Virus record (IMG/VR): IMGVR_UViG_3300005262_000002
Direction: 5' to 3' (one strand)
DNA from: a virus
DNA length: 49,375 nucleotides
Positions within the stretch are counted from its first letter, which is position 1. Every line of letters starts with the position of its first letter. The position numbers and the translations under genes are program-made. The notes beneath the pieces were generated by a model. It saw nothing but the letters and a program-made list of their open reading frames with translations, was not told the origin of the DNA and searched no databases. Below are positions 5,470-49,375 of this stretch, in pieces.

Positions 5470-6438
5470 TCAGCCTCCGTTCACCGGATGGATTTGAGCA
5501 AGCCGGCGCTGCTTGATCTTGTGGGCGATCTCGAGGTTCACGTCGTCGCCGTCAAACGTTCCTTCCGGATCGAGAACAGACCAGATTTCCTCGATGGTCG
5601 CCTCGTCCATTGCGACAGACATGGCCTCTTCCAGTTCGCCAAAGAACTCGGCGGTGTCTATTGGCTCTTCCGCTGCTGGAGCCTCGTCTGTGGCTTCCAG
5701 CGTGACGTCGACCACTTCCGCGTCCTCAACAGGAGGCGCCGGCGGGACCGGAGGAACTGGAGGCGTGTGATTGTGCGGCGTGACGTCGCGCATGTCCTCA
5801 GCGTCGGCGATCTCGCGAGCTTCGAACTCGTCACGGATACCGCCGAGTACGTCGCCGAACAGTTCGCGCAGGCAGTAGCCAGCGGCACGCCAAGCAAGCA
5901 TTCGCTGCGGGAAACGCCACCATGGGCTATCGTTCGGCTTCTGCTCGTTCTTCTTGTCCCACTTGTTCCACTTCGTGACGACGGCTTCCGTCTGCCATAG
6001 ACCGGCTCGGACGGCGTCTTCCTGTGAGAACTCGACGCGCTTGTCTTCATCTGTGTCGTTGCGCTTGGCCTCACACCATCCGACCATCTGGCCATCGCGA
6101 GTTTCGCAGCCGGTACGCAGGTATGAGACTTTGCCCGACTGGCGAACGACGTTGATCAGGCCATCACCATAGAGGGCAGGCTTTCCGTTGATGACTGTAA
6201 AGCTGCGGAGCGCCACCATCGGCTTGAGCCCGAGCTCGGCGCCCGACATGATAGCGACGGTAACGGCTGAGATAGCCGCATCGCCTTCCAGCTTTCCGAT
6301 GAGAGCCGATGGCGCGAGACCGCCTAGGTAGACAGCTTTCGCAACACGGAAGGTCTCTTCGAAGGTCTGCGGCACGATAGCCATGACGTGACCGCCACCG
6401 GCCAGCGCCGGCATGTTGGTTTTAACGGGAGCGTTCAT
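5470..6438 (-). CDS. recT: RecT-family single-strand annealing protein
   Basis: GAELGLKPMVALRSFTVINGKPALYGDGLINVV...PQRMLAWRAAGYCLRELF. Confidence 0.85.
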   Translation of the reverse strand: MNAPVKTNMPALAGGGHVMAIVPQTFEETFRVAKAVYLGGLAPSALIGKLEGDAAISAVTVAIMSGAELGLKPMVALRSFTVINGKPALYGDGLINVVRQSGKVSYLRTGCETRDGQMVGWCEAKRNDTDEDKRVEFSQEDAVRAGLWQTEAVVTKWNKWDKKNEQKPNDSPWWRFPQRMLAWRAAGYCLRELFGDVLGGIRDEFEAREIADAEDMRDVTPHNHTPPVPPVPPAPPVEDAEVVDVTLEATDEAPAAEEPIDTAEFFGELEEAMSVAMDEATIEEIWSVLDPEGTFDGDDVNLEIAHKIKQRRLAQIHPVNGG

Positions 6439-7865: not shown

Positions 7866-8263
7866 TGTGCAGCCCTCTGATCCGTCAGGATGTTGTCCGA
7901 GAGCTTCTTCATTGTCGCTTGAAGCGGGTTGACGAACTCGACGTCGATACCGTTCGCGCGGCCAAGCTCGATCGCAGCAGCGAGAGACTTTACGAAGTCC
8001 TTTATCCGCTTTTCTTCTGGAGACGGGAGAGCGTCGATCCAGCGCTCGGCGTCATCGAACCTTTCGGAAAGCGTATCGCCGGCGCCGTAATAGATCACGT
8101 CCTTGACGTAAGCACTCGACTTCGTCTCGTAGAGCATGACGTGAGGCTCTTCATTGGCGCTCCACACGATCGTAACGTCTGGTCGGACGATGGCCTTCGT
8201 CAGCATTTTCACGACGAGGGCCGAAAGCTTCGCGTTGATTTCCTTGATGTCCATCGCCATCAC
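7862..8263 (-). CDS. Hypothetical protein (133 aa)
   Basis: Second gene of the leftward operon. Confidence 0.6.
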   Translation of the reverse strand: MMAMDIKEINAKLSALVVKMLTKAIVRPDVTIVWSANEEPHVMLYETKSSAYVKDVIYYGAGDTLSERFDDAERWIDALPSPEEKRIKDFVKSLAAAIELGRANGIDVEFVNPLQATMKKLSDNILTDQRAAQ

Positions 8264-8658
8264 TCCCCAGCCGGCCGCAGAAGGCGCTCAAGACGAGCGA
8301 CCGAGCTATGCCCGCCGAAGTAGGCGAGATCATCGATCCGAGCGTCACGGGCGAGATCCGGGTCCGGCTGCTTCGACTGCTCCAGCTCGTCAGCCCATTC
8401 CTGAGCGCAGTGACGGCCGTCGACGGTCTTGTCGTCGTAGAGCACGGCCATGATCTGCATGCACAGGAGCTGCCGGAAGCTGTTGTCTCCGGTCTTGCTC
8501 GGCATCGGCAGGGTGAACTTGCCGTCCAGAACGATAGACGTGATCACGAACTCGCCGTCGCCGTTATCTTCCAGCGTGGCCCGACCGTAGAGAAGGCAGC
8601 CCTCGCAGAGGCCGGGGAGCTTTAGCTCGTCGAAGAGATATTCCGTTTGAAATGCCAT
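8260..8658 (-). CDS. Hypothetical protein (132 aa), first gene of the leftward early operon
   Basis: GAGGAG RBS upstream of the ATG at 8658. Confidence 0.6.
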   Translation of the reverse strand: MAFQTEYLFDELKLPGLCEGCLLYGRATLEDNGDGEFVITSIVLDGKFTLPMPSKTGDNSFRQLLCMQIMAVLYDDKTVDGRHCAQEWADELEQSKQPDPDLARDARIDDLAYFGGHSSVARLERLLRPAGE

Positions 8659-8742
8659 TGCCCAAACTCCTCATTCGAGCCGATCCCGTTTCTCGCGTCC
8701 CGTTTGGGAGGTCATTCGTGATCGGCTGATGAGAAGAACGTA

Positions 8743-8812
8743 TACGCAGAAAACGTAAGGCGCAACAAAAATCGTACGTGGAGTGCGTAAAAAGATTTGC
8801 GCAGTTTGCGTA
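8743..8812. promoter_or_regulatory. Three operator-like 15-mers (TACG-N7-CGTA type) upstream of the leftward operon
   Basis: 8743-8757 TACGCAGAAAACGTA, 8775-8789 TACGTGGAGTGCGTA, 8798-8812 TGCGCAGTTTGCGTA. Confidence 0.45.
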
Positions 8813-8820
8813 GAGGGCTT

Positions 8821-8856
8821 AAAAGAAAAGCGCCGGCGGGATGATCCGACCGGCGC
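8821..8856 (-). terminator. Rho-independent terminator (minus strand)
   Basis: GCGCCGG (8830-8836) pairs with CCGGCGC (8850-8856). On the minus strand this is followed by TTTTCTTTT. Confidence 0.6.
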
Positions 8857-9373
8857 TCAAAGCAGCTTTCCTGATAGAAAATACCTAACACATCACAATG
8901 ATTGATGGAATAGGCATAGCTGCCGAGAGGCGCTGAAAAGCGCAAAATCTTGGGTCTGCTCGGATGTTCCCGCCAAGATGATGCGTCTCAGAGGTGCAAA
9001 GGCAGCGGTTTTTCAAGGGTATTGTCCCGCGCCGCCGATCACTCCGGCAAATCAATCCCAACGCGGTACCGGCGCCAGGCTCACCGGGCGAAGTCAGACG
9101 GGGTTGATGGCCCGCCCGATCACAGCTTTGCAGGCTGCGGGATAACAGCAGAACCAAATGTGGAGACCGCCGAGAGGCGAACTTCAATAGTGGCGAGTAC
9201 CGATTGCACCGCTTGACCGGCGGGAGGATGCCAGAACACAGCCCGGTAGGGTCCGGGAAAACAAAACTATCTGCTGGTTATATCGACTTCATGGATGCTT
9301 GGCCGAGAGGATCGGCAGCGAAGGATGTGTCTCCACAGGACCATCCTAATGCCTAGGTTATGCCCAGAGCAGA
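8857..9373 (-). ncRNA. Candidate long non-coding transcript / structured 3' region downstream of the Arc-like gene
   Basis: About 515 nt without a credible ORF, bounded by the arc-like stop and the terminator. Several 5-7 bp hairpins and three copies of GCCGAGAGG. Confidence 0.25.
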
Positions 9374-9652
9374 TTAAGGGATCTCTTTTCGAACTGTTTC
9401 GAGACGATCGAAGACTTCCCGCCAAGCATCATCGCGGTTTTCCACAGGCAAGCCTTTAACCACATCAGCGATCTCTTGTATGTACGCGTCGATCACGGAC
9501 GTGGCCGGATAAGTCTTGTCCAGGAGGATGAGAAGTTCAGCGTTCATAGATCGGCCATTAGCGTCCGCAGCCCGTTTAATGCGGTCTCGCAACCCGTCTG
9601 GTACGCGGATGATGATTTTGTCCAGCAATTGGCTGGGGCTCAGATCGCTCAT
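9374..9652 (-). CDS. Arc/Mnt-type ribbon-helix-helix DNA-binding protein
   Basis: IIIRVPDGLRDRIKRAADANGRSMNAELLILLDK matches the Arc RHH pattern. Confidence 0.8.
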   Translation of the reverse strand: MSDLSPSQLLDKIIIRVPDGLRDRIKRAADANGRSMNAELLILLDKTYPATSVIDAYIQEIADVVKGLPVENRDDAWREVFDRLETVRKEIP

Positions 9653-9802
9653 GAAGAGAGTGCATACAATCCACTACTCGGCAAATAAATCGTGGCAACT
9701 TGCCATACTCGGTTGACGCGAGTGTGAGCGGTCGTCAACATTTGCGTAGGGGGCTATCGTTGGGAGGAAAATTACTTGGCGGAAAAAGACGTGATGAAAA
9801 CG

Positions 9803-9843
9803 AAAAGGCGGAGCACCGGCTTACGAATCCAGCTTCGCCTTTT
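9803..9843. terminator. Weak symmetric hairpin (A4-GGCG...CGCC-T4), possible bidirectional terminator
   Basis: AAAAGGCG (9803-9810) pairs with CGCCTTTT (9836-9843). The 25-nt loop makes it weak. Confidence 0.25.
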
Positions 9844-9961
9844 GGGAAAAGCAACATTCAAAGTTGGGGACCGTCAACATGCCGAGGCATGCTAGCATCA
9901 GTGCGTTTCTGTTTGCAATCGTACCAAGCCTGAATAACTGTTCTCGGAGGCTTGATGAATA

Positions 9962-10324
9962 ATGCATAGACTATTCACGCCTTTACCACCTCCCGAGAAA
10001 GTCCTCTCCGATCGCTTCCGCGTTCATCCGGTCGAGGGAGATGGAATGGACCCGACCCTTCGAGGCGGTCGTGATTATGTCCTGCTGGCACCCGTAACCC
10101 TTTATGAAGGTGAGGGGATCTACCTCGTAAACGTAGGTGCCGGCCTCGATCTCTTCCGCGTCAGCAACGTCTTCGACGGCAATGGAGGACTGCTTCTCTC
10201 TCAAGAGAACCCCCGCGGCGGATACCACAGACTAAGCAGAGAACAGTTTGATAGCCTGGTCGTCGGCATAGTGGTTGCCGACATAAGAACGCGCGATGAG
10301 CGCTTCCTACGGGGCGGCGCGTAA
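9962..10324 (+). CDS. Stand-alone S24 (LexA/CI C-terminal) domain protein lacking the Ser/Lys dyad
   Basis: VEGDGMDPTLRGGRDYVLL aligns to GDSMYPNYMPGDRVIV of the neighbouring CI, and LDLFRV aligns to PQIKRL. GGAGG lies 11 nt upstream. Confidence 0.7.
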   Translation: MHRLFTPLPPPEKVLSDRFRVHPVEGDGMDPTLRGGRDYVLLAPVTLYEGEGIYLVNVGAGLDLFRVSNVFDGNGGLLLSQENPRGGYHRLSREQFDSLVVGIVVADIRTRDERFLRGGA

Positions 10325-10333
10325 CAGCGCCGC

Positions 10334-11146
10334 TTATCTTCTGGCGATATGTCCGCAGATGCGGCCAATGATGATCAGTCGCTCGAGTTCCACCGTGAAC
10401 GTCTCCAACGCTGGATTGTCCGAGATGATCTTCACTTGCACCGGATCGGAGAACGGGACGCGCTGCAGCCGCTTGATTTGAGGCTCTGACGCTCCATCAG
10501 AGATTGAGTAGACCGTATCGGAGACGAACCTGTTTTGAGACAGGTCGACGATCACGCGGTCCCCCGGCATGTAGTTCGGGTACATCGAATCGCCAATCAC
10601 TTCCATGACGACGGTATGCGACGGCGATGCCTTGGCTTCGCTGCGAAGGTAGTCCTTCGGGATGAGCCACTCGGCGATTACCCGGTGGCCAGATATACTG
10701 GCGTTACCGACAGGCAGGTTGATGACCTCACCCACGACGCCTTCACCCGCGCCGAGCTTCACGTCCAGCTCGGGCAGGGCGTTTGCGACACTCGGCTGCC
10801 AATGCTCCCGTGTGTAGGCTACTTCGCCATCATGGCTGTCGGTTTCGTCAGGATCAAAGGACGGAATGAAGCCGCCTCGGCCAATCACCTCTGGCATTGC
10901 AAGAGCCCAAACCTCCGACGGCGTGATGGCCGGATCACCCCTGCCGACGAGCGCCTTGATCATCTTCATGACTAGTTCGGTGGCAAGGTATTCCTTCTTG
11001 AATAGGGCTGGGTCCTCATAGCGCTGGATGCTCGACGCGCGGGAGTAACCCATCGCGCGGGCAAACTCATCCATGGATAAGCCAGCCCGTTCGCGGAGGG
11101 CTCTAACTTTAGCAGTTACAGAATCAGTGTCGTGTTCAGCGCTCAT
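10334..11146 (-). CDS. cI: CI-like repressor (XRE HTH plus S24 autopeptidase domain)
   Basis: N-terminal LRERAGLSMDEFARAMGYSRASSIQRYE. C-terminal GDSMYPNYMPGDRVIV and QIKRL. Confidence 0.9.
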   Translation of the reverse strand: MSAEHDTDSVTAKVRALRERAGLSMDEFARAMGYSRASSIQRYEDPALFKKEYLATELVMKMIKALVGRGDPAITPSEVWALAMPEVIGRGGFIPSFDPDETDSHDGEVAYTREHWQPSVANALPELDVKLGAGEGVVGEVINLPVGNASISGHRVIAEWLIPKDYLRSEAKASPSHTVVMEVIGDSMYPNYMPGDRVIVDLSQNRFVSDTVYSISDGASEPQIKRLQRVPFSDPVQVKIISDNPALETFTVELERLIIIGRICGHIARR

Positions 11147-11154
11147 GGTTTAAT

Positions 11155-11211
11155 TACGCAAAATGCGTTTACGTTTTCCACGTTGACATGCTTACGCGAA
11201 GCGCGTAGAAC
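11155..11211. promoter_or_regulatory. cI/cro divergent control region: two operator palindromes and a rightward promoter candidate
   Basis: 11155-11169 TACGCAAAATGCGTT. 11193-11207 TACGCGAAGCGCGTA is a perfect 6-3-6 palindrome. TTGACA (11183-11188), 17-nt spacer, TAGAAC (11206-11211). Confidence 0.55.
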
Positions 11212-11230
11212 AGCATGAAACCAACGATGG

Positions 11231-11473
11231 ATGCGTAAAGTGGAACCCAAAACCCCAGCGGAAAACATCATCATGACGCTCGGCGGCCTGTCGAAGACCG
11301 CCAGCCTGCTTTCCACCGAGGAGAAGCGCGTAGCTGTTTCGACCGTCCAAGGTTGGAAGGAGCGCGGGAAGATCCCACAGGAATGGTGGGAGCTGATCAT
11401 CGAGGCCGGCAAGTCGGTCGACAAGACGATCGAGCTGCAGATGTTCCTCCAGATCCCGGAGAAGGCAGCGTGA
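11231..11473 (+). CDS. cro: Cro-like small DNA-binding regulator
   Basis: VSTVQGWKERGKIPQEWW is a Cro/YdaS-like motif. Divergent from cI. The start is uncertain (11231 or MTLGG at 11273). Confidence 0.6.
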   Translation: MRKVEPKTPAENIIMTLGGLSKTASLLSTEEKRVAVSTVQGWKERGKIPQEWWELIIEAGKSVDKTIELQMFLQIPEKAA

Positions 11474-11928
11474 GCGTGTTCTCTGAGAATCTTCGGAAGG
11501 CACGCAACGCCGCTGGATATACGCAACAGGAAGTCGCCGATCATTTCGATGTGACGCGGGGAGCGATAGCTCAGTGGGAGTCTGGTGTCGTTTATCCAGA
11601 AGGGCCCAGGTTGGCAGCAATCGCGGAATTCCTCGATTGTTCTCTCGACGTACTTTTCCGCTCTGAGCAATGCGATGTTGAAGCGGAGCCCATAAAGCCG
11701 AGCACAGCAAAGTTCTGGATGGTTCTCGGCATAGGGCAGGGCGTGCCTCGTTACCAGCACGGAAGCCTTGAAAGCGCACAGGCGGAAGCCAAGCGCCTCG
11801 CTGGTCTCTACCCGGAAATCACCTTCGTCGTGCTGGCTTCTGTCGACGCCTACGTGTCCACCAAGCCGCAGGTCAATCAACTCGTCATCGGTGAGCCAAT
11901 TGGGCCGACCGACGATATCCCATTCTGA
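11470..11928 (+). CDS. XRE-family HTH regulator (cII-position)
   Basis: GTG start overlaps the cro-like stop (GTGA). LRKARNAAGYTQQEVADHFDVTRGAIAQWESG. Confidence 0.7.
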   Translation: MSVFSENLRKARNAAGYTQQEVADHFDVTRGAIAQWESGVVYPEGPRLAAIAEFLDCSLDVLFRSEQCDVEAEPIKPSTAKFWMVLGIGQGVPRYQHGSLESAQAEAKRLAGLYPEITFVVLASVDAYVSTKPQVNQLVIGEPIGPTDDIPF

Positions 11929-11940
11929 GGAGGAGTTCCC

Positions 11941-12183
11941 ATGACCGAGATCCTTCAAGGTCTTCTGTTCTGCCTGGGCGGCGCGACGTTCTTCATTTGC
12001 GGCATCGTCGCTATCGCATCCCCAATGCTCTCTTCTCAAATCAGTCGGGAGAGCCGGGATGAAGAGTCCGGCGCCCCGGAGGGCGATATCACTAATTCCC
12101 ATCATTTCCAGACCCCAAACGCTCCAGGTTCCACGCTTAGCGTTCGGGCTTCGTACCAGTCAGTGCGTTCAGTAGACGGGTAA
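11941..12183 (+). CDS. Small membrane protein (80 aa)
   Basis: GAGGAGGAG RBS. TM segment LLFCLGGATFFICGIVAIASPML. Confidence 0.55.
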   Translation: MTEILQGLLFCLGGATFFICGIVAIASPMLSSQISRESRDEESGAPEGDITNSHHFQTPNAPGSTLSVRASYQSVRSVDG

Positions 12184-12236
12184 CTCAGTACCAGTACCCG
12201 CCCGCCCTGATCATCAATCTATCAGGGCTGGCGAAC

Positions 12237-12650
12237 ATGAAGTGGCTGAAATCCAACCAGAACGAATCAACAACAAAGCAGGGAAAGCAGCAGATGTCTT
12301 TTGTAGATGCATACTCCCCGGAAAGGGCGTCGGGTTATGCCAAAAAGCTCTTCCAATCAGTCGTAAAGGGATGGGGGACCTACCCCCTTGCCGTCGATGA
12401 ATGCGCCAAGCGGAGCCGCATGTCCGAGAGAAGTTTCGAGCGCCTGATGAAAGGCGAGACGAAGGACCCGAAGCTGACCATCCTCGGTCGGGTCCGAGGC
12501 GCATACATCCAATACTGCGAAGAGCAGATCTCGCGCCTCCAGCATGAAATCCACATCGAGATGACGAGGAACTCCGATGACGTTTTGGAAACTCTGGCTG
12601 CTGAGGCTGAGGCTTTGGCTGCACGTATCAAGCAAGCGAAGGGAAGGTGA
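12237..12650 (+). CDS. Hypothetical protein (137 aa)
   Basis: Protein-like with a C-terminal coiled coil. An alternative start is MSFVD at 12294. Confidence 0.5.
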   Translation: MKWLKSNQNESTTKQGKQQMSFVDAYSPERASGYAKKLFQSVVKGWGTYPLAVDECAKRSRMSERSFERLMKGETKDPKLTILGRVRGAYIQYCEEQISRLQHEIHIEMTRNSDDVLETLAAEAEALAARIKQAKGR

Positions 12651-49255: not shown

Positions 49256-49375
49256 CACCGGAGAGGTGGCCGAGTGGTCGAAGGCGCTCCCCTGCTAAGG
49301 GAGTTTAACATTTCCCTTCGGGCGCCCCTAACGATTTGTTTATGCTCGGTTTTCCTGTCAAGAATATTTTCTGAA
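49256..49375. repeat. Terminal direct repeat, copy 2 (identical to 1-120)
   Basis: Same 120-nt string as nt 1-120. Confidence 0.97.
49260..49303 (+). other. Second copy of the tRNA-Ser(GCU)-like 5' half
   Basis: Identical to nt 5-48. Preceded by CTTGCA-N16-CATAAT (49221-49248). Confidence 0.7.

Follow-up and report, generated by a model that had tools for sequence, protein, structure and literature searches.

What can a protein do beside a phage repressor if it resembles the repressor's C-terminal domain (CTD) and has lost its catalytic residues? This question is raised by a small gene, here called ORF120, that ends tail-to-tail with the cI gene of an integrated phage. Repressors of the S24 type are the standard example of how DNA damage is linked to prophage induction. 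The first-pass annotation described ORF120 as a paralogue of the adjacent CI CTD that could act as an antirepressor or as an induction buffer.

The ORF120 gene and its prophage

The window, the whole stretch of 49,375 nucleotides analysed here, is a complete integrated phage. Identical 120-nt terminal repeats are located at 1-120 and 49256-49375, as expected of the attL and attR sites of an integrated phage, and the window encodes an integrase, RecT, an exonuclease, DnaB, a terminase, a portal protein and tail proteins. In the switch region, Sinorhizobium phage phi2LM21 is the nearest of the deposited relatives. Hosts are rhizobia, which are harmless. The features around ORF120 are as follows.

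8743..8812: OL-like operators of the TACGC-N5-GCGTA type
9374..9652, minus strand: Arc-like ribbon-helix-helix gene, divergent from ORF120
9946..9950, plus strand: ribosome-binding site GGAGG, 11 nt 5' of the ATG at 9962
9962..10324, plus strand: ORF120 (120 aa), a free-standing S24-fold protein without the catalytic residues
10334..11146, minus strand: CI repressor of 270 aa with a helix-turn-helix (HTH) domain and an intact S24 domain (PF00717, E 4.5e-13)
11155..11237: OR-like operators of the TACGC-N5-GCGTA type, between cI and a cro-like gene

The predicted OL and OR operators bracket an immunity region from ~8.7 to 11.2 kb, and ORF120 lies inside it. The order in this region is a conserved non-coding tract, the Arc-like gene, ORF120 and cI. 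The Arc-like gene is an optional neighbour, present in ~12 related loci. CI carries the GDSM motif at residue 185 and the IKRL motif at residue 224, with Ser187 and Lys225, and its cleavage motif LGAGEG contains an Ala-Gly site. All that was read off the sequence at first pass, including the convergent layout of ORF120 and cI, is correct. ORF120 ends in a TAA stop codon at 10322-10324, separated by 9 nt from the cI stop codon, which occupies 10334-10336 on the opposite strand.

The public gene call for ORF120 has only 92 residues (P0003), with an apparent start at Met29 (ATG 10046). The N-terminal 28 residues of ORF120 are conserved among its homologues, suggesting that the public call is probably too short by these 28 residues. 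The short call strips the diagnostic G-D-x-M motif from the protein. A word-indexed search found 109 close homologues in Sinorhizobium, Rhizobium, Ensifer and their relatives, with 35-88% identity and nearly all 115-131 aa in length. The median pairwise dN/dS for ORF120 and its homologues is 0.22. ORF120 is a real gene under purifying selection; the possibility of a pseudogene is ruled out by the conserved length and sequence together with this ratio.

A catalytically dead S24 core

ORF120 consists of a disordered segment (residues 1-14), a β core (residues 20-108) and a short conserved helix (residues 113-119) within the sequence VVGIVVADIRxRDERFL. The likeness to the CI CTD that had been noticed by eye holds at the level of profiles and folds, but not in comparisons of single sequences. 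BLASTP detected no similarity between ORF120 and the neighbouring CI, their aligned identity is ~25%, and the single ORF120 protein had no match in Pfam (E<=1) or NCBIfam, the PF00717 gathering score not being reached. Across the family, 22 of 48 members weakly matched PF00717 (best E 8e-4). The PHROG family 'CI-like repressor' matched ORF120 with an E value of 0.008 and scored above the UmuD-like family. Alignment of the ORF120 family with 22 neighbouring CI proteins by hhalign gave a probability of 92.4% and an E value of 5e-7 over 75 columns. The family profile found only noise among PDB sequences. In a Foldseek search of the PDB, the AlphaFold2 model of ORF120 (pLDDT 81) retrieved only the C-terminal domains of LexA, lambda CI, UmuD' and 186 CI (E 9e-5, probability 1.0, TM up to 0.74). 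Its BFVD matches are phage CI repressors, and a protein language-model atlas concurs with the S24 assignment.

Both catalytic substitutions proposed at first pass are borne out. GDSM in CI is replaced by GDGM in ORF120, and Gly28 (codon GGA 10043-10045) stands opposite CI Ser187 in the hhalign register. IKRL is replaced by LFRV (residues 64-67), which places Phe65, followed by Arg66, at the position of the catalytic lysine. No Ser/Lys dyad exists elsewhere in the protein, since its sole lysine, K13, is located in the low-confidence, disordered and unconserved N-terminus. An alternative catalytic pair was considered and rejected because outside the close subfamily His22 is not conserved. No Ala-Gly or Cys-Gly cleavage site precedes residue 28, and the only Ala-Gly pair (residues 60-61) is inside the core. 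As had been stated, ORF120 has no DNA-binding domain: only 19 residues, modelled as disordered, precede the core, and no HTH family matched.

ORF120 shares the fold of the LexA and lambda CI CTDs (MEROPS S24, PF00717) and keeps their scaffold, including the G-D-x-M-x-P-T-L motif, the arginine after the lysine position and the D/E-N-P motif. It differs from them in lacking the serine, the lysine, the Ala-Gly arm and the DNA-binding domain, in being free-standing and in having an extra conserved tail, ADIRxRDERFL. ORF120 is thus a dead S24 core. With no nucleophile, base, substrate arm or DNA-binding domain, it can only bind.

A family of stand-alone proteins

An exhaustive profile search identified 362 clusters of the ORF120 family, 139 of them below 1e-10, and its members are nearly all free-standing proteins 105-140 aa long. 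An alignment of 132 sequences has Ala, Ser, Gly, Asn or Thr at the serine position, without preference. The lysine position is aromatic in 101 of them (Tyr in 73, Phe in 28) and never lysine. The arginine after the lysine position, Tyr54, Pro31, Asp27, Asp38 and Asn83 are almost invariant. This pattern indicates that the S24 scaffold is under selection in the family and catalysis is not.

The claim that ORF120 is a paralogue of the adjacent cI is not supported if a duplicate is meant. The ~25% identity, the lack of a BLASTP match and the existence of a separate large family, also found far from cI, indicate that ORF120 belongs to a separate old family and is no recent duplicate of its neighbour. 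The family is sparse. Among 401 genomes drawn from the order, 7 carried a member, and 401 drawn from the whole class gave one strong match; tblastn found no homologue among 50,697 deposited phage genomes. Scans with single proteins for distant relatives added nothing new. Its members are currently unannotated or mislabelled as "S24 family peptidase". The literature searched contained no characterised case of a dead S24 protein encoded as a separate, stand-alone gene.

Pairing with cI

We surveyed 79 related loci from genomes and IMG/VR (individual loci are given L numbers below). In 54 of them, a cI gene of the S24 type with GDSM is convergent to the ORF120 homologue at a distance of -17 to +41 nt, often with an overlap of 4-11 nt. 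In 10 others, cI is 420-780 nt away, with an additional gene, for example one encoding a DUF2750 protein, between them on the downstream side of cI. The convergent arrangement with an intact S24-type cI thus recurs in 64 of the 79 loci, and the remaining 15 have no cI near the ORF120 homologue.

Two C-terminal types, ~33% identical to each other, and many N-terminal (immunity) types can be distinguished among the CI partners. ORF120 is 60-69% identical across the two C-terminal types. On the ORF120 tree, the CI type requires 3-4 changes, at least two of which are forced by well-supported branches. These partner switches argue that the pairing of ORF120 with cI has survived module exchange. Much of the tracking between ORF120 clades and CI types could nevertheless stem from physical linkage, since ORF120 adjoins the 3' part of cI, which encodes the CTD. 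As a separate observation, phi2LM21 (L080), whose CI and Cro are the most similar among deposited phages, carries an unrelated ORF of 59 aa (record 5853-6032) convergent to cI and ending 1 nt from the cI stop. The ORF120 slot is filled otherwise there and is therefore variable.

Loci without cI

All distant relatives sampled (L088, L090-L093) are without a neighbouring cI, and the non-cI loci branch deeper on the ORF120 tree. Six of these contexts are satellite-like islands (L006, L010, L063, L071, L077, L088), in which the order is integrase, ribbon-helix-helix gene, AlpA, in some cases an antirepressor gene, protein X, ORF120 and primase/helicase. The ORF120 relative is downstream of AlpA in L006, L010, L063, L071 and L077, and an AntA/KilAC or Rha/KilAC gene is in the same operon twice. 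Protein X has 150-200 aa and a KGPAEAATSPS motif. Its gene abuts the ORF120 relative in L006, L063, L071 and L077, with a 4-nt overlap. In L088, an N-terminal KGPAEAATSPS-type motif of protein X is fused to an ORF120-like domain in one ORF. In three further loci (L003, L041, L072), a short XRE repressor gene is divergent upstream and the ORF120 relative either opens the operon or is second in it.

In several genera, ORF120 relatives are coupled, by a 4-nt overlap or by abutment, to genes for small proteins of 90-180 aa, which carry clear S/T-R-R-x-F-L twin-arginine (Tat) signals and belong to no Pfam family. The coupled loci are listed below.

L008: 5600-6997
L010: 6348-6659
L013: 1717-2163
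L041: 6336-6755
L062: 5527-5985
L072: 6360-6896
L093: 1830-2261

No small Tat-signal protein is encoded in the window, and no protein X gene lies beside ORF120.

Local signals around ORF120

Three inverted repeats are located near ORF120.

9803..9843: hairpin AAAAGGCG...CGCCTTTT, terminator-like on both strands
9878..9891: perfect palindrome CATGCCGAGGCATG, ~70 nt upstream of ORF120, a candidate operator
10312..10335: GC-rich 9-bp hairpin over both stop codons (plus strand -24.1 kcal/mol, z -2.5; minus strand z -0.7)

The hairpin at 10312..10335 is followed by UUAUCUUCU on the plus strand and has no U-tract on the minus strand; it looks like an ORF120 terminator. The hairpin at 9803-9843, which had been pointed out at first pass as a possible stop to cI read-through, does exist, with 12-nt arms of 92% complementarity, -20.3 kcal/mol and z -3.1, and it is conserved in L049. 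On the minus strand its stem is followed by UUUUCGUUUUC. The suggested function is reasonable. Such a terminator would keep read-through from cI out of the Arc-like gene and upstream transcription out of ORF120. The palindrome at 9878..9891 is also kept in L049, whose CI type differs.

CI-type operators were found only at 8743-8812 and 11155-11237, and none near the ORF120 start. Across the surveyed loci, operators shared with OR are 350-650 nt upstream, adjoining the leftward early operon and away from the ORF120 start. No alphaproteobacterial LexA box (GTTC-N7-GTTC or GAAC-N7-GAAC, <=1 mismatch) is present within 260 nt upstream of ORF120, and none is conserved upstream of its homologues across the 79 loci. 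No sigma-70-type promoter was recognised in 9653-9961, and Rfam had no match in 8000-12500.

Proposed action on CI and its alternatives

We propose that ORF120 is a binding-only pseudo-peptidase with a LexA/CI-type S24 core. In this prophage lineage it would serve as an immunity-region accessory gene, whose own promoter drives transcription toward the 3' end of cI. CI is favoured as the target by the common fold, by the tail-to-tail arrangement that persists within the immunity region and by the precedent of the 434 Hex protein, discussed below. An action on S24-type CI by protein-protein contact, in either direction, has slightly better than an even chance of being correct. Binding of ORF120 to CI is plausible. 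ORF120 and CI could form mixed oligomers via their shared CTD fold, and UmuD and UmuD' show that S24 cores can form functional heterodimers. Alternatively, the dead cleft of ORF120 could hold the cleavage-site strand of CI. Once made, ORF120 would help to switch CI off, as an antirepressor or commitment factor, and convergent transcription would add mutual interference between ORF120 and cI.

We give this antirepressor-type action a probability of about 0.35 and lean toward it over a stabilising, Hex-like one. The direction is suggested by the relatives of ORF120 in induced or repressor-divergent operons, some of them beside Ant-type genes, by rare fusions of an ORF6N or weakly Rha-like N-terminal domain to an ORF120-type domain, and by the Arc-like gene divergently upstream of ORF120 in the window and in about a dozen loci. 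The convergent and often overlapping layout would also make the expression of ORF120 and cI mutually antagonistic. By analogy, the operons of the relatives, the AntA/KilAC neighbours and the divergent Arc-like gene lend indirect support to the antirepressor version. Several observations stand against it. At ~25% identity to the CI CTD, mixed dimers are not a given. Linkage to the CTD-coding end of cI could by itself make ORF120 clades track the CI type, and a neighbouring cI is missing from 15 of the 79 loci and from all distant relatives sampled. Neither a LexA box nor a CI operator that could keep a putative antirepressor silent in the lysogen was found near the ORF120 start. In addition, the two fusions are single-member clusters located on short contigs.

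Some of these observations would fit a role independent of CI, in which ORF120 is a peptide-binding pseudo-peptidase of mobile elements and its place beside cI is a moron slot kept by linkage. We regard this as a serious rival, though on the doubtful side. The partners could be the small Tat-signal proteins or protein X, which are translationally coupled to ORF120 relatives elsewhere: the former by 4-nt overlap or abutment in seven loci, the latter by abutment in four and by fusion in L088. The deeper branching of the non-cI contexts is consistent with such a role, as is the use of the slot for another ORF in phi2LM21 beside a similar CI and Cro. Inactive members of the clan serve as chaperones, and SipA (4n31) is among the fold matches of ORF120. 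However, neither candidate partner accompanies ORF120 in the window, and a selected gene stays tail-to-tail with cI in 64 loci, across CI types. A role of the UmuD'/HumD kind, as an accessory of a translesion polymerase, is the least credible explanation. UmuD' and HumD of phage P1 are stand-alone S24 cores without an N-terminal arm, as is ORF120, and UmuD' is among its fold matches. They keep the dyad and serve a polymerase, UmuD' pairing with UmuC, whereas ORF120 has no dyad. A polymerase gene is beside ORF120 neither in the window nor in any of the loci examined, and the PHROG scores prefer the CI-like repressor family.

As a Hex-like induction buffer, which we consider unlikely, ORF120 would be made in the lysogen and would shield CI from RecA*-stimulated self-cleavage, lowering spontaneous induction. 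The immunity region is the usual site of lysogen-expressed accessory genes, and the dead cleft could hold the CI cleavage-site strand. 434 Hex, also an accessory protein of an immunity region, modulates RecA-dependent repressor cleavage: it blocks the RecA-stimulated cleavage of its own repressor, not that of lambda CI or LexA, and appears to work through the repressor and not through RecA (PMC3564112). The hex gene is co-transcribed with cI, and the sections consulted of that account report no S24-type fold for Hex (PMC3564112), whereas ORF120 is convergent to cI on the opposite strand, with its own control region. Relatives of ORF120 elsewhere are in derepressed or induced operons, some with antirepressor genes, which also argues against a buffer. 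[quoted passage not shown] ORF120 has its fold in common with proteins that dock in the RecA* groove (PMC9926225). In cryo-EM structures, RecA Phe203 enters a hydrophobic pocket formed at positions Ser-8, Ser-6 and Lys-3 of LexA (F111/L113/V153), UmuD (Y52/L54/F94) and lambda CI (F141/L143/F189) (PMC9926225). In the hhalign register, taken without superposition, ORF120 has Arg20 at Ser-8 and His22 at Ser-6, where the neighbouring CI has Val and Met. Every sequence of the close ORF120 family has Arg20, as do 105 of the 132 sequences of the wide family. Also absent from ORF120 is the cleavage-site region, the source of most contacts with RecA. These residues at the docking-pocket positions weaken the RecA-protection or decoy version put forward in the first-pass annotation, which appears unlikely.

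Comparison with known systems

The antirepressor reading invites comparison with other repressor systems. The CI repressor of coliphage 186 does not cleave itself and is inactivated instead by the antirepressor Tum. Its CTD (2fkd, 2fjr) is among the fold matches of ORF120 and likewise does not cleave. In 186 the non-cleaving domain is part of the repressor, whereas in our prophage the repressor itself has an intact S24 domain and a gene of its own encodes the dead one. P22 Ant, the Gifsy antirepressors, 186 Tum and P4 epsilon possibly have a mode of action in common with ORF120, namely a small protein inactivating a repressor by binding, but they show no kinship to it in sequence or fold. The ribbon-helix-helix gene divergently upstream of ORF120 is reminiscent of the control of P22 ant by Mnt and Arc. 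LexA-controlled antirepressors of the Tum/Gifsy type have an SOS box in the promoter, and none was found for ORF120. The satellite setting of P4 epsilon resembles that of the ORF120 relatives in satellite-like islands.

A more general and distinctly speculative possibility is that stand-alone dead S24 domains form a class of trans-acting repressor decoys, which would mimic the CI CTD and hit any co-resident repressor with a domain of that type. If so, a prophage's own and co-resident repressors could be switched off or shielded, which would couple induction among the prophages of a polylysogen. Satellite-like islands could then derepress their helpers, as P4 epsilon derepresses its helper P2. 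Should ORF120 act on CI, domain mimicry would be an added layer of control on the S24 induction switch. Such an action could be independent of immunity specificity, because the CTD varies much less than the DNA-binding domain does among the repressors of these phages.

Other conserved elements of these loci

In L015 (5980-6683), two stand-alone S24-like genes are in tandem with a 4-nt overlap. The second has GDVT in place of GDSM and passes the PF00717 threshold (E 1.6e-6).

Candidate operators of the Arc-like protein adjoin the start of its gene in the window, where the palindromes TGGCAACTTGCCA and ACTCGGTTGACGCGAGT are located within 9693-9723. They recur with the Arc-like gene in L049 (1811-1842), and a TGGCCAGTGGCCA form is found in L044 (5917-5929), L058 and L064. 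In L044, the candidate operators are within a 92-nt divergent intergenic region shared with ORF120. In phages without the Arc-like gene, the motif GGATTGTCACA and its inverse TGTGACAATCC are upstream of the ORF120 homologues, ~60-100 nt apart (for example L036:5881-5896 and L032:5877-5892), and the second copy is inside a CTGTGACAATCCACAG palindrome. This motif is conserved across both CI types and is therefore no CI operator.

The non-coding tract between the OL operators and the Arc-like gene is a conserved element of ~330 nt (8821-9150, minus strand), which is 76-89% identical in L002, L064, L065, L040, L048, L001, L043 and L012 and occurs in Brucella phage BiPBO1 as well. Indels of a single base exclude that it is coding. 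On the minus strand the element ends in a terminator hairpin (8821-8857), in which a GC-to-CG compensatory swap occurs in 4 of 8 sequences. Double changes affect 16 of the 63 predicted pairs. The element has no counterpart in Rfam and may be a structured RNA belonging to the immunity region.
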